Source of the DNA: Marsupella aquatica
Taxonomy: Eukaryota > Plantae > Marchantiophyta
Assembly: GCA_973895155.1 (NCBI GenBank)
Contig: OZ316894.1
Coordinates: 24,984,709 to 25,048,708 of the forward strand
Length of the DNA stretch: 64,000 nt
Reading direction: 5' to 3'
Below are positions 25,746 through 58,108 of the stretch, in pieces. Both the position numbers and the translations under genes were made by a program. The notes beneath the pieces are model-generated. The model ran no database searches. It worked only from the letters and a program-made list of their open reading frames with translations, and was not told where the DNA came from. Position 1 is the first letter of the stretch; each line of letters starts with the position of its first letter.

Positions 25746-26336
25746 AGGCTGATCCTTTGACCAAGTCAATGATGGTTTCATAAAGTAAAAACTGAGAAAA
25801 TTGACTTTTCAGTCAATATAGTTCAAAGTATGGGTTACAATTTTCAACTCAAAACAATGTATAGGGTTTCATCTAGGTGTTGTCCCCTGAAATTAATCTG
25901 AAAATACTGGCTTGTTCCCTCCCATTTCAATTTTGTAAGAGATGGGGAGATTTTGGCAGGATCTATTATTATAGTGGTTGATGATTAGAGTGGAAGGAGG
26001 ATATGTTTTTTAAATCTTCCTTTATCCTACTAACAGATATAGACATGTAGAACGGCCTTCCAAATCCTAGGCGGCTTTGATTTTCTTAGGTGCTCTCCCA
26101 ATATTTCTACCGGGATACAGTTCAACATCAACGTCCCTTGGGGACAGGATGATGCCATGCTCACAAGGACATCCACAACCGCACACTCCAAAATGCATAG
26201 CAAGGGAATTTGGGAGAATTGCCAGAACACTATTATTTAGTTCTTGACATTGGATGAGTGAATACCACGTTTATTTGTTTTCTATTTGAAGAGCCATCAT
26301 TGTTATGAGCCAGGAATACAATTTTGTTCAGCATCT

Positions 26337-29300: not shown

Positions 29301-30245
29301 AAGAATTCCCAGACAGATTGATTGGATCACATGACGAAACAGAGGCTAGGACTTAGAAGAATGGATAACAATATTTCAAGAGACTGCGGGTGTAATCCTG
29401 ACAACATAGTTGATTTCCAGTGTTCGACTTGAGACCAAATATGATTGTACGATGACCAGAATTCCTCGTCTTCAATTTTTGCTAGTTAATCGCAGACCGT
29501 GAAAAACTTTGTTATGCCACTGGGCAGCATGTAAGACACTGCTGCAAGACAACGAAAATGGGGAGGAATTTTACCTAAGAGCACACTGATCACAACGTTC
29601 AATTACGACGAGCGACTCATCACATTCATCCTCAGTGATCAATATGAGCATAAATTATAGGTGGCTATAGTGTACAACAAAATACCCATCATTAAGAGAA
29701 GGAACCCAATGAAGAACTACAAAGTGTGGGGCGAGCCCTAAACCCTAAATAGAGCAGCGAAGAGATTAACCATGCATCATGTACCTGGTTCACTGGGATT
29801 TATTCTGACCAGCTTGGATTTCTGCATCTCGAAAATCGCTCCGAAAGGGGATCCAATGAGCGCTTCAAGAGAGCATTTGACGTTTGCAATTTTTAAAGTT
29901 CTGCCCGCGTTGCAGAGATAAGAACCACAACCACATGTCAGCCCCAAATGGATGAGCGGGTGGACTGATGCGATGCTGATATGAAATCAGCTGGGCATTT
30001 GAAAAATTCAGCACCCTTCACATCATCTGGTGCCCCTCCCATCTAATCCCACCTTCATGTACACAAACGGCACATCATCAAGTGAAAAACAAACGAGCAG
30101 CATTCTCCATATTGTTCGTTACTCACGAGTTGGCATGGAGTCGTGCAAAGGTCATCCGGTCCCCATCATTGATGTCCAACAATACGGAAGATCCCACCTC
30201 TGCAATGTTCCGAATCCTGCTCCTGGTCTGGCCATCCGTCGCCAT
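26337..30245 (-). CDS. TRM6: tRNA (adenine58-N1)-methyltransferase non-catalytic subunit TRM6/Gcd10, about 12 exons
   Basis: Spliced reading gives SVLLDINDGDRMTF; LIGSPFGAIFE; DNRNLIDTNTSQTLSSGDIE; KYMRKKQKKYAPRV; RMDTLALMLSLSNVGANSDVLVLDSLGGLITAAVAERVGG; and terminal SEQWSREYQVLPSRTHPHMQMSATGGYTLSG*. These are Gcd10p hallmarks. The introns checked are GT-AG. Confidence 0.93.
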
Positions 30246-31485
30246 TTTCCATGCACTGATCTCTTGCTGAGGCAGGATCGGAGCTTGTGCTTTCCCTTTC
30301 CTGCTTTGTCTTCTCTTCTGTTACGTCCTGCTGAATGCTGAGGTTTAGCCAGGGCTTTACAATTTCTAAATGACTGAGAAACCTTCCGTTTGTCGAAAGG
30401 CTCGGATATACTTTTTGAACCAGGATGGAGTGCAATGAAACTCTCTTTCTTCTCATATAGTATGTATTACCAGATGAGTGAAATGTGATAATAACATGAC
30501 GGTTATCTTTGAAAACTAGCCTCGTGGCCCCTTCCTTGAACTTAAATAGATATGAAATAAAAATTTGCACAATAAAATTTATATGCTCTTTTGGTTAGTC
30601 TTTGTCCCATCCTTAATTTTTTTGTCCATACTCATTTCAATTTTGTCTTTATTTAGAGTTGACCTTATTGAATTTCATTGTCTGTATTGGGAGTTATAGT
30701 CGAGAAGTTTCACTCTAGACCTAGGCACTTCAGAGTAGACTTAAGTTGACCCTTTTATACTAAAATTTGTAAGTATCATTCTCACTAGATTTGACAATAT
30801 AAGGCTCATCTCACTAGATGTGACATATGAGGCTCAGCTGAAACTAACAGCATTTCATGAAATTTGGCAGGATATGTGCCATGTATGGAAAGAGAGGGAG
30901 AGAATACTATTTTTCATACCTACCCTGAAATTACACAAAATTCTTCAATTATCTTTCAAACTAATTTAATCACAAAATTGCTCATACATTGCAGGAAATT
31001 GAAGCCTTGATGGACTTCCATGTTTGCCAAAAGGCTTGGATAGAAAGGCTTCACCCTAATGCAGCAAAACCCTTTTTCTATTCATATAACATGGATTACA
31101 CAAGTGAAATGTGGCTAGAAAACAAGGCAGTCACCTTTGAAATTTTACATGTCTCTCTATTCTCAATTAAATTGTTTGATTTTAATTTATTTTCATATTT
31201 CATTCATCTGTGTATTCTGTACTATATGAGCAAAAATAGGGTTTTTTGCAGTCCATCCTGGTTGTAAAAATATATCCTAGGCTTTTGGCAAACCTAAAGG
31301 TTGTCTAAGCTTCAATTGTTAATTGTGGGCATATGTTACTAATTTTGATTTGAAGGTCTGTTTAATGTGTACTGTATGAGCAGCAAGAGGGTTTTGTTTA
31401 GTCCATCATGGTTGTAAAAGGATATACTAGCCTAATGGCAAACCTAGACTTCCATCCTATCTTCAATTTCTAGTTTCAATTTTTA

Positions 31486-31762: not shown

Positions 31763-32350
31763 TAATTTGTTTCTAGTTTTCCTTGAAATAATTTGTTTCT
31801 AGTTTTCCTTGAAATAATTTGTTTCTAGTTTTATGCATCAAGTTCCCAAAAACTAAAGGCGCCCAACCCCGGACACATGATAACTCACACAAAAAACCCA
31901 ATCAAGGGAGAAAAAGAAACGGGCAGAGAAGCCAAAGACCAGGGCAGAAGCCCAACACAAGAAAAACCAAAGGCACAACAAAACTAATCCATACCTATTT
32001 CGACAGGTTTGAGAGTAGGCTAGTAAGAAACGTTAGTGCAGAACGATGCTATACGAAACCAGGAAACCATTTGGGTAAAGCACACGAGTGATCACTAGGG
32101 TTTGCGTATTGTTTCGGAAGAAACTCCAATTCTCTCTCGTTTGTTCGTAAAAAGCTCGTCTCGGAGTCGCTCTCTTCAAATTGATCATCTTCGCGGTCTC
32201 CTTTCAATCTTTGCTTCGTAACAGTCACGAATCGTCCTCTTCTTCTTCCTCGAATGCCACAGTACATCAGTTCGATATCTTTCAAGGAATTGGGTGATTG
32301 ACGAGAAGATCAAAGGACTCGTGGGAGGGAGTTTGCGAAGGATCACAGCG

Positions 32351-35300
32351 ATGGCGGGTAAACGGAAGGCAGAAGGAATTGCATTGCTCTCGGTCTATGG
32401 CGGGGACGATGACGACGGCGCTTCGCAGGCTTCGTCGTCTGATGAAGAAGATGAAGACGATGAGCATCCCGAGCGGCCGCAGGACGCGAGCAATCTTCAC
32501 GCGGATGGAGACATTTTCGGCATCGGTGTTAGAGCGTTGGGTGGTGACGACGACGGTGAACCTCAGCCGGCCGGCGGTGAGATTGCTTATTTTAGGTTTT
32601 CTGACTGTCATCTCACGCTGTGGATGTTACGAAAATATCTTCATGCTTACACCCTTTTTGTCCGTCAATTCCTCTCACAGGTCAGACGTGAGGGCCTTCT
32701 GTCATGAGGACATCTGAAGCTGGGAAATTTCCAGTAAAGACTGTACAAGCCGTTTTTGTGACTTCTAAGCTCTGTACTGTTTGGAGCGTTTAATTGTTTC
32801 ATCGTGAGTCTCAGAGTTGTTTGGGGTCGAATGTTTTTCCATTGGCACCACCCTTTACACCAAATTCCATGCTTAGATCAGGATAGTGATATCAACCCGA
32901 GATTGCTGAAAATTATAAGTTTTCGTCAGTTTTTAATTTGAACTTTTGTTTTATATTCTTCATTTTGTAGTCACCGATTCTATTTTCAGTTATTTCTTTA
33001 AAGTGAGGTAGACTTCCGTCAATTTATCAGGAATTCTCGGTAGTAAGTAGGTTATCTCAACAGATATTACTTAAGGTTTCATCAATTTATATGGTTTTTA
33101 AAGGTGTTCCTTTTTCAATTTAGAATGCTTGCGCACAAGGGTCTGGCAGAATGTAAATTAGCTTACTTTACCTTTTGAATGACTGTCTTTGTTCAAGAGC
33201 GACCGAGCGGCACCCACACAACAAGTCCTGGAAATCTAGCAACTTTGCAACCTGACAATGCGGCAGAAGGCTCGACGCTTCAGCCTGCTGATGCAACAGA
33301 TATTGAAAATAAAAGTAGTGGAGCCGTGGAATGGGACGAAGTTCCTGAATCCGACACTATGGAGGTTGACACACTGAACGATTTCCTCCCACCCGTTCCT
33401 GCAGAAAAGTATACTGGTGAACTGCAGGTGAGTGCTTCAAATCGTATTCGTCGTTATTTATATTCTCTTTGGAGTGTTCCCTATCCCCGCTGTTTGTGAG
33501 CTTAGTAGAGGGCAAACTATACATTCAACTTGCCATCTCTCTCATTACAGCAGTTACTCGTGTTTAATGGCGCTTTTGCAGACAAAATTTTCCAAGTATC
33601 TGGCGTTGAAGAGAACTGGAAAGAGTCTCAACGAGCAACTGAGGAATACCAAGGGCTATCGCAATCCAGATTTTCTGCAAAGTGCTGTTCGGCATTACGA
33701 CATAGATCACATTGGATCATGTTTCAAAAAAGAAATATTTGATCCTCATGGGTACGATGCAAGCGATTATTTTGATGCAATAGGTGAGCTACAACATCGA
33801 TATGAAATTACTCGTGTGGATCACTTCTCTCAGAGTGGATTCGGGCTTTGATTTGTTTTAGCTGTCTATTGGCGTGCAGAAAAAGCGTCAAGGAACACAA
33901 CATCCAGTCTAGCTAAGTGGTGCAAGGAGTTCATTTTATTTCTTTTATATTTTGACAACGTAATTCGGTCACAGTAATCCTAATCGTAGTTCTGAGACGT
34001 AGCTATCCACACTTCTTCTAGGCCGTCAACTGTTCCAGATTGTTTTAATTAGGATGGGTGAGCTCCAAGTTTTCAGTATGTTGCTTTTGGATGCACGGAT
34101 TCTTTCTATGATTAACAACGTTTCCTTTGTTTCATCTTCATGATACATTTGAGGTCTAGAAGTCTAGATGAGAGTCGTGAAGGACTGGCATTATTGCAGT
34201 GGTATCGATTGATTTGTTCTTCTGTTCTGCATATGTATAGCCCTTGAAATCCGTCGAGAGGCAGAGAGGAAAGAACACGAAAGAAAGCAGACGCAAAGAT
34301 TAGATTTTGTTCGAAGCAGCATTCAAACTGCTGTAGCAGTGACGAAGCCTATTGTGCCACTTGTCCACAGAGGTATGGACTAGAACATCCCGGTGCCAAT
34401 TGCTAGCTTACGTAAATAGGTGCTGCCTTTGGTTACACATATCACTAGTGGATGTGGTCTCAAATATATAGTATATATGATACTATTTCTTGCCAATGTC
34501 TTGCCATGACGTCAGGTTGGGCTCCTAAATAGACTGCCGTTTTGTTGAAGTTGAGACCTGTGTAAACCTGCAGGCCGTCGAAGTATCTTGTTTCAATTTC
34601 CTTGTCTTTACTCTTTTGGTATGTTACAGCTTCTCTTCGTCCTGTGGATGTTGTTGACTGTCATCTGCCTGAAGATAAGAACATAGTGGAAGGATTCATG
34701 ATGCATTTCTTTGCTGCTGCTCGCAGTTATAACAATGACGAGTAGCGAGACAACTGTAAAGACAGAAGGACGGACAAGCAAGAAAAGCAAATGGGACAAG
34801 GTGAAGTTCAACTTTTTGTGGTTTGGTTTTTGTTTTTGTTTTTTTAGTGTAACTTAATATTTCCATCTATATAAGGGGTATACAAGCATAGTTGTATAGA
34901 GACGTTGTTCTCGTTTCCAACTCTTGACCTTGTTGGCAGGCCTAGAACTGGTATGCGTTGTTATCCATTAGGCAAATGATAAGAAAGTGGGAAGACCGAC
35001 TGAAATGACCTTGGGTGTGGAGTAGGTTGGGCTCCAATCCTGAGTTAGTGAAACGGCAGTTTGGTCCTAGTGAACAACACCTTGTTAGGCCTAAAATCAT
35101 CTCTGACTTCTCGTTTAAAATACCCGTTTCGGAGTTTAGGTGAAGGCGTAAAGTTTTTCCTATGTTCTTTCCGTTGTAATGTCAGTTAACCTATTTTCAG
35201 TATATATAGATGTTTGTCAATACTGCCACGCCTGACTGGTCTGTGATTGATAACGATAGGTTGATGTAGATGGGGGCCGAACAACTCAGTCAATTACAAG

Positions 35301-35748
35301 TGCCGCAGATGCTATTGCTGCAGCAAATGCCCATGCTGCCTTGTTGACAGCCAGTGCCAATGCTGGTGCAGGTTATGCATCTTTCGCGTAAGTATTTTTA
35401 ATTTGTTGCAGTCCTCAAACCAGAGATGTGGTGAATCGGCCTCTGATGTTAGAGATTGAAAAGTATCACCTTTTCCCTTTACTTGTGGTAGTTGTTTGTC
35501 ATGACAACGAGTCGTTAGAATTTGACGCTAGTGTTATTTCCAAAACATAGTTTGAAATTGACGAATTGGAAGAGAGAAGTCTCTCGATCATAGCATGGAC
35601 GTACTCTCAAATCTGCAACGGTGTTCGTCGTGTGTGTTGGTCTTACAGACAACAGCGTAGAAGGGAAGCCGAGGAGAAATCTAGAGCCATTGAAAAAGTT
35701 TCATTTTCTAGCACAAGCAAATCAGACAGGAGGATAGATAGGTCATAA
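32351..35748 (+). CDS. SAP30BP: SAP30-binding protein / HCNGP-family protein, 7 exons
   Basis: Phase-consistent exons 32351-32576, 33198-33427, 33582-33783, 34241-34372, 34727-34800, 35260-35387 and 35649-35748. Motifs: MAGKRKAEGIALLSVYG, FLPPVP, LNEQLRNTKGYRNPDFLQSAVRHYDIDHIGSCFKKEIFDPHG and KKSKWDK. Confidence 0.92.
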
Positions 35749-38878: not shown

Positions 38879-41800
38879 ATGGAGCACAAGAAGCGAATAC
38901 TACTGGAATCAAGGCTACTTTTACTGCTTTTGATGCTGATGATTTCTTTCGTGGTGTCAACTCATGGCGATAAGATATCTTCAAGCCTATGGAAGACATG
39001 CGACCACCCCAAAAATAGAGTAGATGGCTTAAATTGCTCAAAGAAAGTTGTATTGGAATTGTCAATTGACAATGGCAAAGTATGTTCCTTTCAACTTCCA
39101 ACCTGAAATGTGTGAAAATAGACAAGTTTCCCGGAGTCAGGCCTGCCAAGTAATTATGTTGTAGTATGCATTTTCCAATATCTGGCCCACATGATTGAGA
39201 ACTTAAGAGAACCAATCATAGCCCTCAACACTAATCAATTGAAGGGGGGTTATGTTAGAAAATGTATTCTAGCATGGAATGACATTCAACGACAATTTAG
39301 CCTAGTTTCTTATAGTAAGTCCTTTCTCATTTGGCATTGGACACATGAACAGGGTCATGCAACTTTTACACTTTTATGAAGGTTGTTTGATTTCTTCTCT
39401 GTAGACAAAGACTCAGCTTTCAAAGCTCGTCAACTTTTTTTAGGATCTTTTGTAGTGTCAATATGGCCCTAAGATCAGTCTTAAAAGCCCAGCTGTGAGT
39501 GCCCAGAATATCACCTTGAGAGATAATTTGTCTTGTTCTTCTTTAGTTTGTGGTTTTCAATTCATGTGGTTGATTTCTCCATGCCCCAAAAAATGCCAAG
39601 AAATGAAGTAATATCATACAAAGTATACAGAGAAGCTTAGCATGCACGAAATTAAATTTGGCGAAGTACTGAAAACAAGGCCCCTCTCGATTGCGACATA
39701 AATGAATAACCCTATTTTCCTTTTGATGTCCAAGATCATGGAAAGCGATACCACAGAAATCTTTGTCACTTCGGTACAAGAAGCTGATGGTAAAAGTAGA
39801 GATCTTGGAAGGCCATACAGAGTGACAATCTACAAAAGTGATGTCTATGCTCAATACCCTTTGCGATATGTAAAGGTGAGATAAATTTCTTTTATGGAGT
39901 ACCCAAAGTTTTCTCCCAAGGGTTGAGCCTACAACGTTATAGAGGAATGTTGCAGTTTACTGCTGGTTTCTAGAGACAAATTCTGAAATGGAATGTGGAT
40001 GAAGATTATGGTCAACACATGCTAAAACTTTGGACTGCTAATGGAACTTATGCTTTAAAATCTTTTATCATATGTACAAGAGGATCTATTTTCTACACTC
40101 CTTTTTAGTTTTGGGAAGGGGGGGGGGGAAGCAGGGCACCATGTCACTTAATTCACCTTGACATGAATAGCCAACTGCACCCAAGGCTAATACCATGTTT
40201 GCCAATTTTACAAACGTATATTAAGCATATGAAAAGTCATACTTAAAAACCTAGAGCTTAATTTCTTCCAGTGATTCTATAGGGATCATTGTCATTTGTG
40301 CAAAACAAATGTCTTGAACTCCTTCACAAATACATAAAAAATAAGATAAAGTGGTAAGTCTTGATAGTCAAAGAAGCTTGTCATATTTGGAACTCAAAGA
40401 GCAGGTTCTATGATTCTTTTGTGAAGAAACCAGGTTGGCTGCTTGAATGTCAGTATTCTGTGTAGAACAACTAGCTCCAAGTAGTTGTGTACACCAATAT
40501 ATGCCTTGCTCCAGCTGGGGCTCTTGGATTTGAAGAGGGAATTTGTTTAGGGTTTAGGGATTGCTAAGTGTGACCCCCTAGTACGTGTGACCCCTAGTAC
40601 GTGTGACCCCTAGTACGTGTGCCATATATGGGCTCCCATCAAAATACTATGATTCTCCACTCCTTGGCAGAGCTTATATGTCATTTCATCTTGTGCAGAG
40701 TTTTGCGAAAGAGGTGGACTTTAAATACCCAAATGACAGTATGCGTTGTGGGTATTACAGCTTACTCCGTTCAATCAGTTTTTGTAATAAGTAGGCCTTG
40801 CCGAATAAAATCATGGACCCAATGCTCCTGTTCCCCTTGGTGCAATATACATGTTGACTTAGAATGTTGTGAGGATTCTATTTTTGCAGACTTCATCATA
40901 AGATTGAGGAGAGACTTCACCTTGGTGAGGTACTATGTTAATTTTGTATTTCTAATCAATCTTGTTTCATTTCATGGGATTTCTTCAAACTCCTATGAAA
41001 GAGTGTCATTTGTAGGTCTGGTTCAATAAAGCAATGGAATTTCTTTTAAGTAGAAAAACTTGTTGCAAGGTTTTATTTTTTCCAAGGGGAACCCACCTAT
41101 GAACAAGCTGTGCAACTAGTTTGCAGGCAAGGGAAACTGGAGGTTTATATTCTTGTATTTTCTCATATAATTCCTACAGCTACCACGAGCCCCTGTGGCG
41201 CATCACACATGTGAACAGCTTGAAGTGGTTTTGCATAGAGCCCATAATAGATACTGGAGAAGAACTGTATGGGCCGGGATTGATCTTTAGACCTCCTGCT
41301 TCAAAGCCACCCCAGCCACCTGTTCTGACCAATAGTCCCCACTATGAATGGCCTTGGATACCATCAATACACAGTCAAAATTTCTGAAATGACAGTTTTT
41401 TAAAGTTAAGTAGATTGTCACATCCAGTTTTGACCTGCAACACTGAAAGTCTCAACCTCCTAATAATGAGTTTTGAGTGGCATTTCACAATATCTCAGCA
41501 ATGTGGGCAATAGACCTTATTCCAGAGGAAAATGTTTGTTATATTTTCTTTCTTCCTACTTTTCTTTTATACCCCTTAGTACTAGTATCTGTAATGATCT
41601 CTTTATAATTTTGACATGACTAGTTATGTTACGCAGGGGTTTTGCAATGTTTGTGCTTGGAAAGATAAATTACCAAAGTGGTTAGCAGGAGCCAAATCAA
41701 TGAGAAGACCTGGCCTGCAATGTGTTTTCTTACCAAGTAAGGCCAACATTGCCCAAATGCCTAAACTTGTAAAACATGAACTCAGGACCCAACATGGGTG

Positions 41801-44800
41801 CATATATTGACTAAGCTGCTTCTGATAGTTTGTTATTTTTGAACGAGAAAATTAGGTATGTTCAATGATATTTCAACTCATTTCGACTATTGGTTAAGTT
41901 GCTTTTGAACTAGTTGATTAAAAAAAATTGAAAATGATTTTATTGGAAAAAAATCTTCAAAATTTTATTAAATTTTATTTTATTAAATTTTATTTTATTA
42001 AATTTTATTTTATTAAATTTTATTTTATTTTATTAAATTTTATTTTATTAAATTAAATTTCATCTCTTCCCTTACCTCTCAAACCAAAATGTCAAACATA
42101 TAAATGTTCTTAATTCTTTTCAGTAGCATATAAAAACCAAAAAAATTATAGGAATTAGTAATTCTTCAAATGGGATGCCTCAGAATAAACCATCTATATT
42201 GTAAATATAACTGAGAAAGCTTTTGGTAGGTTCAAATTTTATTTACAAATCCAGCTCTGTTGTACATAAATCTTAGCATTCAACATCTTGCTGCATCAAC
42301 TAGCTGGTTTATTGAGGAGAGAAGATAGTAAACCCCTCTGATGGACTCTTAATTTTCAGCCCTATCGATTATAGTTTTTAGCCTTCTATCTCTGCAGGGA
42401 TTTTAATTTTAGGCATTTGTCAACACACATACGTGTCATTGTCCCATCTCGTATATTATATGAAGTGTTTGTAGGGAAACTTGTGAATCTGCAAGGTTTA
42501 TAAAATAACAAAAATAATCTCTATATCACTATTTGCCTACTTCTTAAATATTATGGTTTTTGGCCTTGTGAAAAAAACAAGAGTAGGAACAAGTGCATCC
42601 TCTTGGTGGAAAAATGGAAGTGTGCATTGCCAAAGATACATTCAAAAACGGTTAGTTGACAAGCTTCACACAATAATGCTCCAGGTTCTCAATTTAGAGT
42701 CGAGAGATTTAAACAACCCAATCCGCCAACAAAATTGTCACCATTAATTCTGGAACCTGAAGGTATATAATAAATGAATTGTCCTGTTACATTTAAAAAC
42801 CATAAATATTTAGATAGCATACAGAAGGTCCCAATCAACTGTAGCTTTTGAACAAATTGACTATTATTCTAGACTCTTCTGGACAGCAAAAACAGTGTTT
42901 TTCCTATTCGTACTTTGAGATACTTCATCCACTATTTGAACATCAAGTCTTCTGCTTTCATTGAAATTATTGGAACCATTAAGGTTTACTTCAATGATAT
43001 TCATTGAAATGTAATATATGTTTCCCTTCTTTTAAAATAAAGGTACCCAGGCTACCTAATTGAAGACCCTACCATGACATTTGCAATTACCATGTTCTTA
43101 GAGGAATTATATTTGAAGGAAGGATTGGTCTATGTGCATTCAAAGAAAAACAAGGTACACCAGCATTTCCATATGTGCTCTTACTTGAGCTAAATTTCCT
43201 ACTCGAACCCAAAAACCTAATTTTATTTTTGCTGATATTTTAAATTTCACAACGGACCAAAAACTTGACTTAGAGAGTTTGATGATTGATCAAATTTCCA
43301 CCAGGAATTTCATGGAATAATAGTCATTGTGGTTAAATCTCATACACAGATTATATTGCTGCAATAAGAAAATATTATAACATAAGTGAGATCAATGATC
43401 CACAAGCTGGGGATAAATCCCAGATGGATTGGCGCAGAATGTAAGAAAACACTTGGGTAACACCCTTTACAGTTTTGACTGAAGTGGCTCATGATCATTT
43501 GCAGCCTATTTTAGTTAGTTTACCCGGTCATAAGTAGCTGGTCATGCCCAAACTATTCAAGATGTTCTTCACAAAAGTGAAATGTCCTTCCCAATAGTGG
43601 TAATTTGTTCATCATGCCCAAACTACTCGGGCCTCCTTCACGAAAGTGAAAATCCTTCCAAAAGTGGTAATTTATTACTCAATTGGTTTATAATATTGAC
43701 CATTTTTGTAGTCATCTGAAATATAGCAAATCATCTAACTAGAATCTCACCCTCTGTCAGGTAATAGATTGGATATCAGAGAACATGTAGGCAAAGATTG
43801 AGATTAAACAAAGATACAAAAGTTTCCAGATCAATGTACAAGTCTGCCAAACCCAGTAGTTTCAGTTGGTCGGGGTATACGGAAAAACTACTTGGAGCGA
43901 CCTTCACAAAAGTGAAGTGTCCTTCCAAAACCAACGGGTTAGTGTTGTTGCCAGGATAAATGGGCGGATGACTTTATGCAGTTCATGGGGAGGGGCAGGA
44001 CATCCACGCATCTTTTCCACATTCTAAAGTCCATAGACCCATACAGTTACAGTAAAAAAAGGTTCACAAACAAGTACATGAATATAACAAAAATATATTT
44101 GCGTAATTATTGGCATAACATTTTTTTTAACAAAACCATGGATATCTTAATTCTCTTTGATTCTATAGACAATATAGTCAAAGAGAATATATAAACTAAA
44201 AAGAACCTTGGAATCTTGGAACATGGATGTCTTAATTCTCATTGCATGTTCATCCAGAAGGTTGCGGAGTTAACCCCTTTGCAGAGAATTCATGTCGACA
44301 AAAGAAGTACTCTGAGGGCTTCCTTGCAAATAAATGTATCAAGCTATGCTCAACTATTTACCTTCAACGACAATCCTTCATCAATTCCAAGTGGAAGGGT
44401 AAGCAAGGTAGTTGATTCTTTTCACAATATTAGTGTTGTTTGTATGCCCAGTTGAGACGTTTTCCAAAAGAATATATTATGCACATAACATATAGAACCC
44501 CTTTGTACAGTGCCAAGTGCAACTGAAAATTAATCTAACTTAATGTAGATAGGGCTTTATTTATTTTGCCATTCTGACAATTGGGCTTTTTGGCTCTCTT
44601 GATCTTCCTGGTTTTCTTCTTTGATACAATCTTGTACTGGATTTCTTGCCTTTGGGATCATGTCTCCCCCTATGGTGCTTTTTGTTCTTTGTCAATGCTA
44701 TATACTTGAAACTTCAACTTACTACATTTCCTATTGAAAATAATTGAGTACCCATAGACCACTTTTCTTGATCCAGGACGAGGGAATGATGGTGAACAAT

Positions 44801-47800
44801 GAGAAGTACATGCCACTTTACATAATATCTCAACATGAACACTACAATGAAGGACATGTAAGCTGGCCAATTTTGTTTAAATTCTATGTTTTCTAGTTGA
44901 GATTTTTAGCCTTGCACTAATTCTGACTAGGGTGGGGGTCTGGTGCACCCATCAACAAGCCAAAGACCACAAGAGGACTCACAAGAAAAATAACCAGCAG
45001 GAAGGAGGGTAGATGTCAAACTGTACACCCACAGGACTGTAATTGTAGTAGGGACTACAGCACAACCCAAGCTGAGTGAGGTGAAAACTACACAGAAAAT
45101 GACTCCTATTGGCCCAAAGGAGGGTGTTGAATTCAATGAAGCACACTCAAACTAGAGATGGTGCAGGCATGAAGGGCCTGGACCAGCCTATTTTTTTTGT
45201 GCAATTTTTTTTGCCAAATTCCACCTCTCCAAAAAATGTTTGCCACTTTTGGCTAATATTTGCTAGATTTTTTAAACACCATTAGTCACTCTCCCACCAA
45301 ATCATGGACCATTAGCCAGAATCTAACGGCCCTCCTTAAATCTAGGGATATCTGACGGTCATGATTTATTTCAGTAAAATCTGATAGAGAATTTTCCAAG
45401 AATCTACTCCCTTAGAGAAGCAAACACTGGCTAAAAAATCAAAAACCTTTAAAAAATAAGTTGGCCTGTACTTCAGTCGTAGAACACTAAGATGTACATG
45501 GCAGGGTCCTAGGTTCAATTCCTAGCTGATCCATGTTGTTGAAAGTTCAAAAAATAATGAGCCCATCTAAATCTTGATTGTGCATTCTTCTCCATAAATG
45601 CACTGAAAATTACAAGGAGGAAAAGTGCAATGGCATTAAGTTTAAAATTTTAAGCTAATAGAGTGAATCCATGGACTGTGTAGATTGTTTGCTGCTTGTA
45701 GAAACCGCCTCAATCTTAGTTGGCTCTTTCCTGGACAGATGGGCTGGCTTTGAGGTTATGTGCTTTCTGGGTGGAAAGTCTTAGCCAATGTACATTTACT
45801 TGGTGTTTGGGCAAACTTTGTGACAAATATGGAAGTGCTTTGGACACCTTTTTCTTTATCCTGGACTGCCTTGGTTCAGGGGCCTTGAGCTTGATGTTGG
45901 CCCCCTTGTTTTTCGTTTGGGCTCTTTTGAGTGTTCATCTGTGGGTTTGCACAGAATCCATTCAACAAAATTGATTTAGAAGTCTACATTAATGAAAGAT
46001 AAAAATGTTCAAGATTTTAACATAAGACAATGTTAGATACCATGGAGGTTTCGTTTCAGAACTTATGTTAAATTGTTTGGTATCAACTCTAAATATCCCA
46101 ACACTCATTCAATTTTTTACTTGATTTTCTGGATTTTCAACATTCATTACTTATATGAGTTTAATTTGATATTTCAATTCTAGGAGGGTATTGCTGTGCA
46201 ACAAAGCATGGATGTCTTTTTAAACAAGAGCGTGACATCTTCTGTAAAGCTCGAATTCAAAAGGAATAAAATCTATTATTTTGTAACCAGGTACATATTT
46301 TTATGTTTTTCACTTTGCAAAATAAGGCATTTGCCAAATTCATTTTTTCACTCACTCATATAAACTCTGAAGAGAATTGAAGAGGAATGAAAATGGGTAC
46401 TTGTTTGATTAGCTAATAAAGTCACTGGCTAGGAGTAGAGATCAGTATAATTTGTTAAAGATAACATTCTACTGTAGCCAGTGCCTCTTTTAAAATAATT
46501 CTCTCCCCAAACAAAAGAAAAACATATATACGTCTAGGTTTTATAATGACTTGAAATGAGCAATTAGCCTCATAACGGAGTATTAAAGTGACAGTAATGT
46601 TGATTTTGAACATGATGGGAAATGTGGGAAGGGAATAGAAGTCCAGGAAAAATTGTTTCAGTGAGAGTTCCACCAAACATTGAAGGAATTCCAATTCTCC
46701 ATGTTGAAGTTACAAACACTGGGTGGCATAGTGCCAAATTTTTGATTCAGGTGATCTCATTGTATCCTAATAGCGTGTCAGTCAAAGAGGGCTTAATGTT
46801 AGAGCTTTAGCGTCTTTCAAATTTAGTACTTTTTTTTCTTCTTTTCAAATTTAGTACTTAAGTTTGCAGTTTTCTTTTTGAACATTTAACTTTTTGTATG
46901 TTATTGTAAATTTTTTTGATTTCAGCCACATTAAATCTTTAATTTTCTAGGATTTGTGACATCTTCAAAATCATCCATTAGAAATATTTTTAATTGATCT
47001 ATTTTGAACTATTTCAGGTGGCAAAGTGTTCTATTGGAATCCACAACCCACCAGTACGGTCCGAAACTCTTTGGTTGATAATTGTTTTAGATTCCTTTTT
47101 CCCAATTCGTATGCTTGATTCCTTGTCCATATATGCGGGTGGAATGGAAGTGCCTATTTTGACATTCCTTTGTTGTTTTCTCAGGTTCAGTTTGTTACCT
47201 TACCTTTCCCAAAATTTATTTATTCCTTCTTTTTTGAATTGCACAAGACTGAGAATGATTTCACAACCCATGTGTGTCAAGGTGCGTATACATGCTATGA
47301 ATCCAGTTGTAAAAGTTAACAATACGTTAGATCTCTTTACAGTGATTACGGACATATGACATTTGTTCTTGTCCAATATGCTTTAAATAAACTGATTTTT
47401 GAATACAAGTCGAAAGGTATATTTTAACTATACTAGCCTGAGATGCACAAATTTGGATGTAAATAGATACTAGAACATTCACGCCCATTGTGTCATTTTT
47501 ATAGACTCACCCTGCCCCCAATCCCCTTTTTCCCCTGTGCACCCAATTTCTGTTATGCCCCCAGAGTCACCCAGAGTCACCATCTAGAGGTTTCACTCTA
47601 GACTGTAGTCACTCAAGAGTAGATTTCAATCTTGATATGGCCAAACTCATATTGGCGCCATTTATTTTGTGTACTTTACTTCCATTTTAAAGTGTACTGG
47701 CAAAACCCCATACTGACCACAATGTGTCTTTCACAGTGAAATTATTTGACAGTTTTGGTGAGAAAGTGGATAGTTCAAAAATTGTATTCGGGACCATGCC

Positions 47801-50800
47801 CGGTTGGCACACTAAGAATTTGAAGGTTTGTAGCAGTCTGCACTTGATGTATGCAAAACGAGCGAGAAACAACTTTTTTTATATGACCAGCAGCTACTGA
47901 AAACATCTCATTTTAGTTTCAAGGTAGAACTCAATTCTGTGAAATAATTTTAGTGCTGGTCAAACAAACACTTATGAAACAAATCTTTTTGGGACAAAAT
48001 AATCAAAATTTTAACTCAATACTAATGTGCCATCTTGTGCCACACAAAAAATAAACAAAAGTATTCAAGAAATGTAGTTTACATCTAGTTCATTCTAATA
48101 TAGTCACGTCTTGTGCATGCTTTTTTGTTTCTTTTCTTCTGATGCCAATCTAGGATTATAATGCGGATCTTAACTCCACTACAAGAGGTGTACAAGAGTG
48201 CGATGGCATCTCTATGGGTCTCACATCCCAATATTATAGAACACATGACAACATCTCTAAAACGACAGTATCAGACAACCAGCGAAGAAGCCACAGTCTA
48301 GCAATCTACAAAAATAATTTAGCGGCTTGTCAACCAAAAAATATTGCTGCAGTCGACAGCTATTTCCAACGCAGGCTTGGCACAGGCAACATTGCAAGAC
48401 AAAAAAATAGAGTTGAGAACAAAGTAGTAGCCACTACACCCGGAAATAGAGGAAAAAGCAAAGTGAGAACAAGAAATGGGAATTATAAACCAAAAATACT
48501 TGGAAGTCCAAGAGCTCTCGTGAAAATCTTTGAGGAAATTGCAGCAGATGCTCCAGCTAATGAAACTCCTCCAGCTGCTGCAGCTACTCCATGTAGCATT
48601 ATTACTTGGCTGTTTGGAGGTTGTAATACCACTGGGAATGGAACAGGGAATTCAACAAACACTACATGCGGGTATACCCCTCTTTAAAATCACTTAGGAC
48701 ACTGTTTCAATTACTCATCTCCAAATTTGGATGGGTAGCCAAAAGTTTAAATTGCTTTCTTTTTGAAGATGTTTGTCTAGAAGTTCTGGTACACAAATAA
48801 TTTATGAATGATTGCATGTTTAAAAAAAAAAAAAAAACTTGCAATCCATATTAATATTTTGTTGGATGGAAACTGTTGCCCGGTTTGTTTAGAGGTTTCC
48901 CTAAACTGATGACAACAGTTTCGACTGACAGGAACTGTGGGGGTTCTGCAATTCATGCGTTCACTTGTGATATTAAGAAGTTCTGTTTCATACCTGTACT
49001 TGAAGTTGTTGGATTGGCTGTTCTCATAGTTCTAAGTAAGTATTCCACCAGTGAATGACCACCAGTTATTTCTCTTCTCTTCTCTCTTTTGTCCCTATTA
49101 TAAGCACTTTTCAGCTTTACTTGCAATGTTGCACTTAAGGTTTAGTATATGTGTGCAGCAATTATAAGGAGCTAACTATCATTTCCATAAATGTGATTGC
49201 AGTTTGTATGTTTGGTATCATTTCAAGCGAGTCCAAAAAGGTTAAATCGGGTAAAGGTTTTATCAAAGGGAAGTTACAGCAAGCTAAGGGAATAGTGAGG
49301 AAAAAAACGCCAGCAAAAAAGAAAGCAGGCAGAGGGGCTGGAAAGGCAAAAGGGAAGAAGGTGGGAGGAGGGGCAGGAAAGAAGAAAAACCCAGGCAGCA
49401 AAACCTAAGCTGGCAGAGCTACCGCTGGTAAACTGAAGATAGGGGCAGCTAAACCTAAACCTGCACCAAATAAGGAAGCTGTGTATGCCAAATTAGAAAG
49501 CTCAATGTGTATGTGAGAGTTCATGAGTGGACTAAATTCTCTGGCAAGGTTTCCTTCCCTCATTGTGAAAAACAATTACGTATTTAATCTAACATTTAAA
49601 TAAATGTGCTTGCAGTTTCTATAGTTGGGTGCATTTCGTGCGGGTCCAAAAAGGTTGCATCGGGTAAAGGTTGGTTTCTGAATGAGCTAAAATCCTTATG
49701 TAATCTTGGGGCAGAAGATGGGGTGGGGCATGGTGAAAGTGGACGGGGAAAACATAGGGTTTTACAATTTGGGAAAAAGATTGGGATGAAGATTGGGAAG
49801 GGTACTGGGAAAGTTTTAGCATGGTCTGGGAAAAGAACAGGGAAAGCTTTGATGTGGACAGGGAAGAAGACTGGGAAAGCTTTAAAATGGTCAAGGAAGA
49901 ACGGGGGGAAAGCTTTGAAGTGGTCAGCAAAAGAGGGAGGGAAAGCATTAGTATGGACGGGAAAGAACACTGGGAAAGCATTAGTGTGGACAGGGAAGAA
50001 GACTGGAGAAGGTTTGAAGGAAGCTTATGTCAACTTGAAGAAGCAAGATTATAAGGGGAAACATCCTAAAAGGGAGCATCATAAAAGGAAAGGTAAAGGT
50101 AGAAAGAAAGGGAGAAAGAAAGGAGAACCCACTGAGGAGGAATCACAAAACTCTGAAGACACTATGTTTGGAGGACTATTTGGAGACGACCAGGATCCTA
50201 AAAGGGAGCAGGGTAAAAGCAAAGAGAGAAGTAGAGGGACAAGGAAAGAAGAGACCACTGAGGAGGAATCCCCAAACTCGGAAGACACTATGTTTGGAGG
50301 GCTTTTTGGAGAAGACCAGGATACCACATTAGTTGAGAAGACTGAAAAGAAAAGGAAGAAACGAAAGGAGAGAAAGAAAGCAAAAAGAAAATCGGATCAG
50401 TTTCAGGAAAATGATTATGCAAAAGAAGAGATTGATGATGCAGAGGATGAAATTGATGACCCCCTTGATCAAGAAAATGATGATGGAAAAGATGAGATTG
50501 ATGATGCAAAGGATGAGATTGATGATGCAAAAGATGAAATTTATGGCCCTCTTGAAGAGCCAGCAGTCCACAAAGTTTCAAAAAAGAAAGCAAGTCTAAA
50601 GGAAACTAAAGACAATGCTCTTGAAGGGTCGCCCGATGACTCCACCAAAGAAGTGTCAGAGAGAGTAAAAAATGCTGCCAAAATTGGTAACGGAGAAGTG
50701 TCTGATCCCTCCCAAAAGCAGGTTATCCAGATCATATTAAAACAAAGTGACGTTGAGAAAGAAACTGGGAAAAAAATGGCAACACATGAGGGAAAATCCA

Positions 50801-51381
50801 CTAAAACCAAGAAAAATGTCCATAAAAAACCTATCACAAAGTCAAAAAAAGCTTCTAGAAAGACCAGTAGACCTCATCGCCATCACAAGACAAAAGATCA
50901 CAAACATCATTCATCACCATCATCATCTCGCTTTAGTGATGAACCCTCCCAACTTACTATAATCCCATTCTACTCTCCTAGTCAAGCATCACCTTGGTTA
51001 TTGACCCAACCCCAATTTCAACCTCAACCTCCTTACACCAACTTCCAGCCAGTGATTCTCCCAAATCAGTTCCCTGCAACTCCAAATCAAAATATCCTTT
51101 ATCAATTGCCTCCAAATCCCGGCCAAACCTGGCAACGTCAACCAGGACCCCCCCTTTCAAATTTTAGCCAGAATTTCCAGCAAAATCAACCAAGACTTCA
51201 ACTCCCAAATATGAACCAAAACCTTCAACAGCCTCCCCAAATATTGACCAATCCTGGCCAAACTTGGCAACAATCTCAACCAAGACCTCAGCCCCAACCT
51301 TCTAACCCAACCTTCCAACTGGGCTTCCAACGGTATCAACAAACTCCACAGCCAACTGCTTTCCAACCCTTTCAAAGATGA
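38879..51381 (+). CDS. HAP2: Divergent HAP2/GCS1-like class II gamete fusogen, 18 exons; long-tail isoform about 1270 aa
   Basis: Exons 38879-39079, 39735-39875, 40699-40751, 40890-40924, 41087-41142, 41637-41736, 42587-42650, 43043-43154, 44258-44398, 44777-44857, 46184-46290, 46639-46750, 47018-47053, 47185-47281, 47737-47825, 48154-48671, 48932-49035 and 49616-51381 are all GT-AG and phase-consistent (3813 nt). HAP2 motifs appear in order: signal peptide; KTC..LNCSKKVVLEL; RDLGRPYRVTIYKSDVYAQYPLRY; GFCNVC; RRPGLQC; SVHCQRY; YPGYLI; PLYIIS; TRSPGKIV; VTNTG..A.F..V.KCS; VCQVKLFDSFGEKVD; C..C....FTC....C; then a TM helix and basic tail. Exons 3-5, 10 and 16 are the least certain. Confidence 0.85.
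40569..40620. repeat. 16-17-bp minisatellite, 3 copies of gtgtgacccctagtac, in a HAP2 intron
   Basis: Seen directly in the sequence. Confidence 0.9.
41959..42060. repeat. Pure A/T 15-bp minisatellite (aaattttattttatt)n in a HAP2 intron
   Basis: About 6-7 copies seen directly. Confidence 0.9.
45461..45534 (+). other. tRNA-derived relic (SINE head or pseudo-tRNA) in a HAP2 intron
   Basis: T-arm-like stem-loop ctaggttcaattcctag containing a B box, with an upstream A-box-like tacttcagtcgtag. No intact cloverleaf. Confidence 0.45.
49203..49408 (+). CDS. Alternative duplicated terminal exon 18a of the HAP2-like gene; short K/G-rich tail, isoform about 750 aa
   Basis: tgcag acceptor in phase 1, matching exon 17. 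Its first ~55 nt are paralogous to exon 18b (ICMFGIISSESKKVKSGKG vs ISIVGCISCGSKKVASGKG). Confidence 0.7.
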
Positions 51382-54300: not shown

Positions 54301-56367
54301 GTGGAAAGTTTTTGCAAGACACTCGTATTGCAATCATTTTTTTCGTGAAGCCTTTCAGCTGCAGATGGCTTTTTTCTTAAATGTTTCAATGCCCTTAAAG
54401 ACACCCAAGTAGTTAAAACTCTGTCAGGAAATTGAACACTGGACAGCCTTCCAAGCAGAGTAACCCCCTCTAAAACCACCACTGTCTAGAAACGTAGATT
54501 GAAAGAAAGATGCCATGATATAAATCATTGGCCACTACACTAACCTAGGCCGAGCTCTGCACAGGCTCTCTAAATTGGGGACAACACACAGCCAAGAGTG
54601 AAATAACTTGCACAATACACTGAGGTTCCTCTGTACAGCCGAGGGATAAAAAAGTAAGCACAATACACTGAGGCTGAGACAACCACGATTGTCACCATCA
54701 AGTATAGGTTCCAATCCAGATTCAAAGCTTCAACCTGCAGATTCATAGCTCAATGTATAGCTTGAGTTCATTCACTTCAATTTCTTCAAAACTTTAGCCT
54801 CCACACAGGACAGATGTGACCACAGAACAGCACTCAAGTCACTCACTCATCTATATTATTGGCAAGACCAGTGAGGATACCAACTCGCAAGAGGGGGAGC
54901 AGTTCACAACTCCTATTGCCTCCTTGGTTTCAAGGGGTAATAGAACTTTAAACCCAACAGATTCACAGCTCAATCCACCAAACTGACAGCAGCATCCGCA
55001 CAGCTACTGCAAAACCTTGCAGAAAAGCAGAAACTTGGATACAATTTTGGAAGCCAGTAAGCACACAACATCAAGTAGCAGCACCAAGCACAGATCAGCA
55101 CCAAGCACGAGCCTGAGCACCCGATGCCAAATTGTTCAAAAGAACCTGAGGCCAAAGAGGACCAAGCAACACCAGCAGCACCAAGGTCCAAATAGAGCCC
55201 TGAGCACCCTGCAAAAGAGCACGTGCGGAGGATGGGCACAACCTCAAATCCACAAACTGCGTCAGTGGCTCAACAACTTTGAACCCTATGAAGCTCCCAT
55301 GAATCCAATTGTTGGATCAATCTCCCCAATGTGCACAGCTAAAGCCAAAAAAAGCCACAATGCCACAAGATCACTGCTCAGCTGAAGCCGAGCACACAGC
55401 CAAAATAACAAAGTACAAGAGCCTTCAAAAACCAGGTCTAAAAAATGAGCACAAGCAAGTGCAAACCAAAATCAAAAGGAGCCGCATAGGACACCAATTG
55501 TGAGATAAGGATGTTTATAAAGGAAGGGTTAACTAACCATAAATTTTAGAATTTTTACGTTTAAGATCTCAAATGAGGCTGAAGAGGGACCTGAAGACTA
55601 CTTTGAAATGTTATGAGACTTTCAAGCCCATCTGAGGTCAACCCGGATTGATATTAGAGAAGGAGGATCAACCCGGAACTTTTTACTATAAGCCTTGAAT
55701 GAGATATAAAGCTTATACCGAGACTCTACTAAACAACAGCTGTCCATTGCCAAAGTTTTTAAAACCATAAGTCAAACACAGGCACGACCACAGCAGAATC
55801 CGGATATAAGGAAGGAGAGTCGATCCGGCCTCTCACACCTCTCAAAGCCGAACTTAGTAGGTTTTGAGCTCCCGAGCGCATTAGGCTGTTTAAGCAATAG
55901 AGTGAGGAGGCTCTACCCTTTTGGTAGAGGATCTTGGGTCCGGATTATAGGACCAATCTTGCATTGCATGATGAGAGCCTGGATATGAGGGTAGTGACTG
56001 ATTTGTTGTGAGGGGAATGCCTACTCCACCGCTGGAAGTGAAGGCAGGAAGTTTGAGATCCTGGTCGTGGATACATCGGTTGTGAGAAGGGAGGCCAGGT
56101 CAACCCGGACATCACCATTGCAGGCCCGATTGAGTCCAGATTTTCCCCACGTTAGATGACCCTGCATTGTGGTTGACGAAATCTTGATGCAATTCTTCCG
56201 AAACGATTTTTAGTTGATTAGAAACGCTGCGGCCAGGTCGACCCGGACATTTCTACCATTGGTCGACACCGAAGCGATTGAATATTCTGAAGTTGCAGAA
56301 TTGTAGAGCTTGCCGTAGAGGAGGTAGAACATTTATTGGAAATCAATTTGTTACTTCCAGAAATCCT

Positions 56368-58108
56368 ATGGAGCAAGGGGCGGATCCAGCCGGAATGTCC
56401 ACTTCTCGCGTCTCTAAGGAGCATTCAACCTCAACATCACCTGCACCTACTCCGGTTAAAGCCCCTGTGAGACGATCGAAGAGAAAGGAGGTCCCCATTG
56501 CCATGAAAATTTTGAGGCCAGCTATTCCGGACAGTGAAGCTGAGAAGGTCAAACTGAGGGAGTCTTTGCTCAGGATGGGTTGTGAGTCTCTGATGGAGCT
56601 ACCCTGGAGTTATCAGAGCGAAGATATGATCAGAGAGATCCAATCCAAGGAGTATCCGGCTGAGTTTAAGGATACCTCCAGAGGCCGACCTGAGCGATGG
56701 ACTCAGATGATGATTGCAGGAGCTTTGTATTGGAAGATGAAGGAGAAGGTCCAGTGGGGAGAGCTGTCAACCTAATCCTTCCTTACTTCAAAGGAGCCAT
56801 CAATAGTAAGGACGGGTTCAATGTTTCTAAGTGTTTGGATCCTGATTTGAGACGAGTCTTCAGCTTTTTGCTACCCCTGCTGTACCCTGAGAAGCCAAGA
56901 AGAGTTACTGTTGGAGTTGGCTCTACCATTGTTGCTGCTTACAAGGGAGAAATAAAAGTCAACTGGGCTAAGCTTATCTTTGACTTAATAAGGAAGTTGG
57001 TACAGAACCTGTCCAACAAGAGTCCTACTCCCCTCTCCTGCTACCTGGCACATCTATATAGTTTTGAAGGAGTCTTATTCAGAGAGGAGAAGAAATTACT
57101 ATTGGCCAAGTTCAACTTCATAAAGTATGGAGAGACAGATCCAGATATCACCCAGGCCACCTCTGATGACAGTGAAGATGAGGAACCAGCAGAGACAAAT
57201 CCTTGAAAGACCCGGTCTGTTGCCCAGAACCTTGACCCGGACTTTGCCGACCCAGCCTTCGTCGACCCGGCTGAATTTCCGGATGCACCCGGCCATGCCT
57301 ACCTAGACACCCTAGCTGATTTCCAGATCATCTTAGACACATTCCAGAAGGTGAAGAGGAAGACCACTGTGATGGAGAAGGCCATCACTGACATTTCTCA
57401 AAAGTTAGGAGTGAAACCAGGGCAGATTCTTGAAAGATCTCCACCATGAGTGATGCCACAGATAAGAGGAAGTTGGAGAAGGAGAATGAGTTCCTCAAGA
57501 AGAAGGTATCTGAACTCAAACAACACTTGGAAAGGAGTAAGAAGAAGAATGAGCTTGAGCATACTCTTCAACTCAGTATCACTCAATCTTTGGATCTGAT
57601 TGAGCCTTTGACTGAGATAGCTTCTCTGGATCTTCTTAAGGCCCAAATTTATGATGAGTATTTGGCCAAGAACACCACACCCATCCTTTTCTCCAAGATT
57701 AACCATTTAGTGGTAGATGTGAGTACCAAGGTGGATGATGCACTTACGGGTCTCTCAAAGACCTGTGAAGCCTTAAGGGAGATGAGTGACTTGACTACAG
57801 AGGAGATATTAGCTGATACTGAGATTCCTGCCTTTACTACCAGATCTTTCTCTCCTAGTCCTCATGAAGGAGTCTATTCCACTGGCCCCTCATCACCCCT
57901 CAACCCTCCTGGTTTCCCCACTCCCAGTACACACTTCCACTCCCATTCTTACACTTATTCTCATGACCCAAGTGCCCATCAGGAGAACATGGATATTGAC
58001 CCGTCCATCCCTTTTACCACTGGCCAGCAGGGAGTTTTCCTTCGACCAGAACCCCTTGCCATGGCTAACCCTGAGGAGGTTCCTTCCCAAAAGCTAGGAC
58101 CAGAATAG
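56368..58108 (+). pseudogene. Decayed retrotransposon-associated accessory ORF of a bryophyte-type family
   Basis: One protein split by a frameshift near 56720, an in-frame TGA at 57204 and a frameshift near 57440. It carries ELPWSYQSEDMIREI..RGRPERWT, KDGFNVSKCLDPDLRRVFSFLLPLLYPEKPRRVT and VNWAKL, then a coiled coil. I recognise this pattern from repeated liverwort TE-associated ORFs. No RT or integrase is visible. Confidence 0.6.

Follow-up and report, generated by a model that had tools for sequence, protein, structure and literature searches.

A selected 11-residue Lys/Trp repeat array in the likely cytosolic tail of a divergent HAP2/GCS1-like protein from the liverwort Marsupella aquatica

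Published work on the gamete fusogen HAP2/GCS1 gives the family a hallmark of seven invariant Cys residues and a Glu-Arg salt bridge at the tip of domain II (PMC6089408). The length of the tail varies greatly, reaching at least 500 residues in Chlamydomonas and Toxoplasma (PMC8777248). For the Arabidopsis HAP2 tail, positive charge and not sequence is functionally required, and tails can be exchanged provided that they are basic (PMC2841615), whereas one study found the Arabidopsis and Plasmodium tails to be dispensable (PMC3013147). Marchantia sperm express a HAP2 orthologue (PMC6290024).

Cytosolic elements behind the transmembrane (TM) helix are known from other fusion proteins. The reovirus FAST proteins have an endodomain with a polybasic motif and a FLiPS helix; in p15 this cytosolic lipid-packing sensor is essential for pore formation, and only ALPS-type helices can replace it, not other membrane-binding helices (PMC4464655). 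The C-terminal helix of atlastin similarly promotes fusion (PMC7830690). Added Lys residues abolish the curvature selectivity of an ALPS motif, and the same source treats the Lys-rich synuclein as a curvature sensor (PMC6164224). Repeats of 11 residues underlie α-synuclein, the perilipins and the apolipoproteins, and are also found in phage tape-measure proteins, which are predicted to be α-helical and in which the aromatic residues that mark each repeat are proposed to engage a chaperone (PMC5099701).

The 11-residue repeat array described here was found in a 64-kb stretch of M. aquatica DNA (64,000 nucleotides; the window), where it likely sits in the cytosolic tail of a divergent HAP2/GCS1-like protein, on the evidence of the sequence comparisons below (Table 1). 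The model of this gene comprises 20 shared exons that give an open path, a signal peptide, an extra stalk of ∼170 residues and one TM helix; a basic tail follows. Its frames were picked by eye, guided by known HAP2 features, and the open path therefore carries no weight as independent proof. The least secure exons are 10, 11, 13 and 15, with acceptor scores of −0.7 for exon 11 and −3.8 for exon 15, and one intron is a 53-nt GC-AG intron.

Table 1. Features of the HAP2/GCS1-like gene and its repeat array (positions in the window).
Feature	Position	Strand	Description
Exons 1-19, HAP2/GCS1-like ectodomain	38879..48671	+	Signal peptide, domains I-III, extra stalk; provisional hand-built model
Exon 20	48893..49035	+	Cys-spaced pre-membrane segment and most of the single TM helix (Kyte-Doolittle 19-mer mean 2.9)
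Ta, short alternative terminal exon	49203..49408	+	67-residue Lys/Gly-rich tail, 22 K/R
Tb, long terminal exon	49616..51381	+	587 codons after split codon
Juxtamembrane segment	49663..49707	+	Helical moment 0.38, mean hydrophobicity 0.57 (computed)
Degenerate G-K-K lead-in	49756..49794	+	Runs on into the 11-mer repeats
11-mer array	49795..50025	+	Seven tandem 33-bp / 11-residue units, consensus G-K-x-T-G-K-A-L-x-W-[ST]
Acidic 7-residue repeats	50407..50545	+	21 bp x 6.5, downstream in Tb; helical moment about 0.44

Searches with individual exons point to a relationship to HAP2. Exon 1 has AtHAP2 (5ow3) as its sole match in the PDB (E = 0.033), and chains of the Chlamydomonas protein, CrHAP2, are the top three of the 17 PDB matches to exon 2. 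Exon 2 also matches the profile PF10699 (E = 7e-4, 18.7 bits, under the curated cut-off of 27.4), and the exon-15 frame matches profile positions 364–406 (E = 0.16), collinear in the profile with the exon 2 match. PDB searches with exons 7, 11 and 14 and with the exon-15 frame gave no HAP2 match. Scanned singly, no more than 2 of the 23 frames and 1 of the 15 exact exons match PF10699, and none reaches the cut-off, which marks the gene as strongly divergent. The weak collinear matches to PF10699, 5ow3 and CrHAP2, together with the signal peptide and the one TM helix, support the HAP2-like host gene implied by an earlier, sequence-only reading of this DNA. By eye, the model offers six Cys residues in its stretch 131–205 as candidates for the hallmark residues, along with a Glu from exon 3 and two paired Arg residues from exon 7; the idea that this protein has lost the invariant Arg was dropped in the light of PMC6089408.

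Compared with the characterised HAP2/GCS1 proteins (PF10699; AtHAP2 5ow3; CrHAP2 5mf1, 6dbs and 6e18), the M. aquatica protein is alike in its signal peptide and weak collinear ectodomain matches, its one TM helix with an adjacent Cys, and its basic cytosolic tail. It differs in the strong divergence of the ectodomain, in which the best exon falls as far below the cut-off as given above, in its extra stalk, in its two duplicated last exons and in the 11-residue Trp/Lys array. The stalk, which is unusually long for a HAP2-like protein, is encoded by a 518-nt exon (48154–48671) and lies between domain III and the TM helix; its sequence is at first basic, then Ala/Pro- and Asn/Thr/Gly-rich, and has no match in Pfam.

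Two divergent neighbours are seen elsewhere in the window, at about 26300–30300 (−) and 32350–35400 (+): a minus-strand multi-exon gene and a gene for a SAP30-binding protein (PF07818), the latter sharing 93% identity with a protein of Calypogeia fissa and 80% with that of Marchantia over 69 residues, in keeping with a liverwort source. The minus-strand gene, which we take to resemble the tRNA m1A58 methyltransferase subunit TRM6, gave no Pfam match with the one frame scanned. At 56218–58108 three broken reading frames, also with no match in Pfam, give the impression of a decayed retrotransposon-derived gene.

Following the membrane exon are two alternative last exons whose 5′ ends are duplicated, 68 of 83 nucleotides (acceptors and first codons) being alike between 49176–49258 and 49589–49671. 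Each has a CTAAC branch-like site, which in Tb is at −27 before a TGCAG acceptor, and each is in a phase that fits the TM exon. Scored with a matrix from the gene's own acceptors, Ta is the better of the two (7.4 vs 4.8), with Tb ranking fifth among 61 nearby AGs. We infer the joining of the TM exon to Tb from these sequence features; in the provisional model it would give a protein of 1309 residues, compared with 789 for the joining to Ta.

The Ta tail is plain Lys/Gly-rich sequence with no 11-residue period. Beyond its TAA stop (49406–49408) the frame stays open for another 35 codons, which resemble the tail in their Lys/Ala/Gly-rich make-up (49203–49515 in all), and neither of two public runs, X3 and X4, differs at the stop, suggesting that Ta may be a shortened older copy. 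From its sequence, the array probably grew out of a Gly/Lys-rich tail like that of Ta. The order along Tb is the Cys-containing end of the TM helix, a linker, the 11-residue repeats, basic and acidic blocks and a Gln/Pro-rich end, and no second TM-like window is present in the tail (maximum Kyte-Doolittle value 0.38). The juxtamembrane segment, right behind the TM helix, is a better candidate for a classical amphipathic helix than the repeats themselves, and the acidic 7-residue repeats downstream are a possible charge partner for the basic array. An acidic 22-residue motif also occurs twice in Tb (50131–50196 and 50257–50322), ending in a Phe-Gly-Gly-Leu-Phe-Gly core.

Translation of the plus strand in 33-bp steps reproduces exactly the seven units quoted in the sequence-only reading. 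That reading placed them just inside the membrane; they do lie behind the TM helix, but unit 1 begins 49 residues past the first Lys after the TM helix in the exon model, and the exon that carries them is numbered 21b in the present model, not 18b. K2, G5 and L8 are conserved in all seven units, K6 and W10 in six, and A7 and T4 in five, with unit 7 being degenerate. The composition is strongly basic (net charge +17, 30% charged residues), with 21% Gly and six Trp residues (7.8% aromatic). TRF describes the array with a period of 33, 6.2 copies, 72% matches and a score of 152. At a lag of 11, 43 of 66 residues are identical (0.65), a value not attained at any lag in 5000 shuffles (best 0.34); further autocorrelation peaks at lags 4 and 7 correspond to a 3-4-4 sub-spacing, and the 11-residue period is uninterrupted and free of Pro. 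All six in-register matches to the repeat pattern in the window fall within the array, and the three scattered one-mismatch matches outside it compare with 1.06 expected. The array is far above chance.

The array is also coding. It lies within a stop-free frame of 593 codons, where 1000 local shuffles reach at most 293. The synonymous divergence described in the sequence-only reading is confirmed: mismatches between units number 65, 58 and 111 (each of 231) at codon positions 1, 2 and 3, giving a pS of 0.63, a pN of 0.25, a pN/pS ratio of 0.405 and a Jukes-Cantor ω of 0.23. A ratio this low arises in 6, 12, 32 and 53 of 4000 divergence-matched neutral simulations under four models, and in 10, 27, 26 and 63 of 4000 when unit 7 is omitted, which indicates constraint at the protein level. 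The other two plus-strand frames have no comparable codon-position bias, and alternative reading frames over the array are ruled out by their stops and their lack of synonymous bias; a minus-strand frame that mirrors the codon bias is ruled out by a stop in unit 7. In sum, the array is a tandem expansion that codes for protein and is kept by purifying selection.

Contigs from runs X3 and X4 cover this stretch and allow alleles to be compared; no exon joints were seen in them. Over 49113–50080, X3 is identical to the window, while X4 has 14 differences with no indel and no stop, and keeps the frame. Three of these differences are in the array, two of them synonymous and the third an Arg to Lys replacement toward the consensus, numbers too few for significance (P = 0.20). 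In the linker between the TM helix and the array (49618–49794) all six are non-synonymous and conservative (P = 0.14, not significant), and a Fisher test is likewise not significant (0.08). With 34 allele differences per kb, where the array has 13, the linker has the appearance of fast evolution, again not significantly so. Just upstream, at 49019–49142, X3 and X4 each have two intron haplotypes that differ at seven places, yet a single downstream contig; these represent either an allele pair or a second gene copy.

The geometry of the repeats is less straightforward. The sequence-only reading proposed a Lys/Trp amphipathic helix of the 11/3 type, and wheel analysis does give a non-zero moment at 98.2°: 0.229 on the Fauchere-Pliska scale (equalled by 376 of 20000 full shuffles; per-unit mean 0.253) and 0.362, the top peak, on the Eisenberg scale (0 of 20000). 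The 11-residue period, whose 3-4-4 spacing is that of an 11/3 helix, and the strong basic charge agree with that reading, but the moment is no larger than when these 11 columns are put in random order (as large in 11208 and 3028 of 20000 cases), and in the Fauchere-Pliska spectrum the 11-residue block period is strongest (0.42), above the helical harmonic. With the lead-in included, the moment is 0.42 for residues 53–66 of P0001 and 0.25 for residues 53–150.

What is not supported is the Lys/Trp amphipathic helix. On the 11/3 wheel W10 is at 164° and L8 at 327°, 163° apart, and the small-residue face (A7, S/T11, T4, L8, G1 and G5) is opposite K2 and K6. In silico, a Trp to Gln change takes the moment from 0.23 to 0.38, and the removal of Trp takes it to 0.34–0.43; since W10 moreover lies between K6 and the mostly basic position 3, Trp is outside the apolar face. 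Given this weak moment, and Trp opposite Leu between two Lys stripes, the repeats would not form a clean Lys/Trp amphipathic helix. On a HeliQuest-type lipid-binding score, for which we assume the formula and the thresholds of 0.68 and 1.34, all 60 18-residue windows exceed the lower threshold and 38 of 60 the higher, mostly through their charge. A strand-type moment exceeds the helical one in only four of the seven units, with small values.

Two AlphaFold models are of unusable confidence. That made from the sequence alone (pLDDT 37.8; 142 of 145 residues below 50) drew strands, not helix, over the repeats, and that made with five non-homologous look-alikes as alignment (pLDDT 41.8; 87 of 103 below 50) drew one strand per repeat. 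They give no support for a helix and are too weak to count for strands.

Searches for relatives of the array return look-alikes. Homologue searches with the start of Tb gave 0 of 227 and 0 of 482 candidates, and neither P0001 nor the Tb start has a match in Pfam. Among 1.84 billion representatives no array-bearing relative was found; the 16 phmmer matches, none with PF10699, are unrelated repeat proteins (10 of 16 looked up, two of these with uninformative names). Twelve are 11-residue arrays, nine of which orient their moment as the HAP2-like array does; four have Trp at position 10, and 2 of the 16 match the apolipoprotein family PF01442 weakly, below the cut-off. In the PDB the array matches only a designed propeller and lacticin Q (E 0.03–0.08), and no homology to the synuclein, perilipin or apolipoprotein families was detected in Pfam or the PDB. 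The closest look-alike in architecture is P0011, an unrelated Logan protein of 175 residues with no Pfam or Atlas match, in which a hydrophobic segment is followed by six very similar basic 11-residue repeats with Trp and Cys. Neither the array nor P0011 had a usable match in the ESM Atlas, a result uninformative on novelty or absence.

Prokaryote genomes gave no match in 172 stretches, and phage records a single 30% match, to a hypothetical plasmid protein. One metagenome match (1 of 199 stretches) was rejected as chance: its DNA is GC-rich, lacks an array and gives 36% identity over 44 residues. Of nine viral matches to the pattern, one is a tape-measure protein (PHROG 167) that has the same K-A-L-x-[WF]-[ST] register, carries +17 over six units and adjoins a hydrophobic segment, but is unrelated, with 35% identity that does not extend beyond the repeats. 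This likeness is more simply read as convergence, judged from the sequences, and its occurrence in unrelated 11-residue arrays as well marks the motif type as convergent and common. No HAP2 tail with such an array was found in the titles and abstracts of the largely open-access literature searched, nor is one described in passages of PMC8777248, PMC12069490, PMC8566406, PMC6290024, PMC9659367 and PMC6089408.

Comparison with the better known systems shows both common and distinct features. With α-synuclein, the perilipins and the apolipoproteins the array shares an 11-residue period, a Gly/Thr/Ala face and many Lys residues, and its moment of 0.23–0.25 is close to the 0.257 of perilipin-4 (Plin4) and below the 0.30 of α-synuclein (PMC5889406). 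It is unlike them in the position of Trp on the polar side, in its net charge of +17, in its tether to a TM protein and in its aromatic content, 7.8% against 0.2–2% (PMC5889406). Like the FAST endodomain and the atlastin helix, it would follow the TM helix of a fusion protein as a basic or amphipathic element on the cytosolic side. Those elements, however, are short, membrane-proximal, non-repetitive and experimentally demonstrated, whereas the array is long, repetitive, highly charged and known from sequence alone. The p15 helix is ALPS-like, and ALPS and FLiPS helices have a polar face poor in charge (PMC6164224), in contrast to the heavily charged array.

We consider the array to have about an even chance of being an 11/3 surface helix, avid and strongly basic yet weakly amphipathic, by which the HAP2-like tail is pinned to the anionic inner leaflet. 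By analogy with the synuclein and perilipin repeats the helix would form only on membranes, its small-residue face lying in the headgroup region, its Lys residues binding anionic lipids and its Trp residues forming an interfacial or partner-binding stripe, not the core of an apolar face. Its function would be electrostatic anchoring and localisation, as proposed for the polybasic HAP2 tail of Arabidopsis, in a longer and more avid form that could be switched with the short Ta tail if both last exons are used. The selection on the protein sequence, the 3-4-4 sub-period, the moment near that of Plin4 and the lipid-binding scores, all above the lower threshold though mostly through charge, favour this reading, as do the X4 allele, which keeps the frame and has its lone replacement toward the consensus, the shared moment direction in 9 of 12 look-alikes and the weak PF01442 matches of two. 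It also fits the predicted helicity of the tape-measure family (PMC5099701) and the importance of charge over sequence in Arabidopsis (PMC2841615). Against it are the re-orderings of columns that do as well, the dominant block period, the position of W10 opposite the apolar face, the Gly content, which lowers helix propensity, and the strands drawn by AlphaFold, albeit at unusable confidence; the better-scoring acceptor of Ta, the reported dispensability of the Arabidopsis and Plasmodium tails (PMC3013147) and the sub-cut-off matches behind the HAP2 assignment also weigh on it. Taken as a whole, the best reading is that of a lineage-specific elaboration of the known polybasic tail of HAP2.

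The sequence-only reading suggests instead that the array could sense or drive curvature during fusion-pore opening; this would mean that it inserts into the edge of the nascent pore and assists its opening. The precedents in p15 and atlastin (PMC4464655, PMC7830690), the moment in the perilipin-4 range, the treatment of Lys-rich synuclein as a curvature sensor (PMC6164224) and the tether to a fusogen-like protein speak for such a role, which we nevertheless regard as unlikely. The moment is weak, Trp is off the apolar face and the first unit is 49 residues from the TM helix; the p15 helix accepts only ALPS-type substitutes (PMC4464655), and the divergent host is a fusogen only by likeness. 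Because added Lys removes the curvature selectivity of ALPS motifs (PMC6164224), the charge of +17 points to electrostatic binding over ALPS-type curvature sensing. Unlikely, too, is a protein-interaction rod, in which a hendecad helix would pack its small-residue face (G1, T4, G5 and L8) on a partner or, in a HAP2 trimer, on the tails of the two other chains, while a Lys-Trp-Lys stripe on its outer side would be free to meet a binding protein or lipid headgroups. This would explain why Trp lies ∼160° from Leu and why Gly and Leu are invariant, and it agrees with the chaperone role proposed for tape-measure aromatic markers (PMC5099701) and with the acidic heptad block in the same tail, but the packing face offers a single large hydrophobic residue per 11 and chains of such charge would repel each other in a bundle.

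The units may not be helical at all, each consisting of a flexible basic Gly-Lys linker and a short A-L-x-W-[ST] anchor or strand, so that the whole would be a beads-on-a-string membrane tether or a small β-meander. The dominance of block periodicity and the i, i+2 relation of L8 and W10, which puts them on the same side of an extended chain, suggest this, as would the strands of the AlphaFold models. The very low pLDDT of those strands, the small strand-type moments, the helix-like spacing at lags 4 and 7 and the predicted helicity of the look-alike families make it doubtful. We think it more doubtful still that the array has no special structure, being a slippage expansion of a Gly/Lys-rich tail kept for its charge, or that Tb is seldom used as an exon or belongs to a decaying paralogue. 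HAP2 tails do vary in length and are exchangeable if basic (PMC8777248, PMC2841615), no array-bearing relative is found, and the linker has only non-synonymous allele changes; on the other hand, Trp, Leu and Gly are kept in six or seven of the seven units while third positions diverge, and the long frame is intact.

We conclude that the array is a real and selected variant of the HAP2 tail, undescribed in the literature searched and made from a familiar type of repeat, for which a role in curvature is speculative. The role of the HAP2 tail is unsettled, its charge being required in one study (PMC2841615) and the tail dispensable in another (PMC3013147). Here a single ectodomain comes with two natural tails, a short one that is simply basic and another with a selected, regular Lys/Trp array, and charge alone could therefore be set against structured membrane binding by a direct swap. 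If the array supplies charge only, it would be an unremarkable tail expansion, specific to a lineage within a group of plants that has been little studied. It is a long shot that the gene is a HAP2 paralogue which, by choice of last exon, alternates between two tails, one short and polybasic, the other long and with a synuclein-like 11/3 helix of ∼100 residues that shapes the inner leaflet at fusion-pore opening; were this true, that helix would be the first module for remodelling membranes on the cytosolic side of a gamete fusogen.
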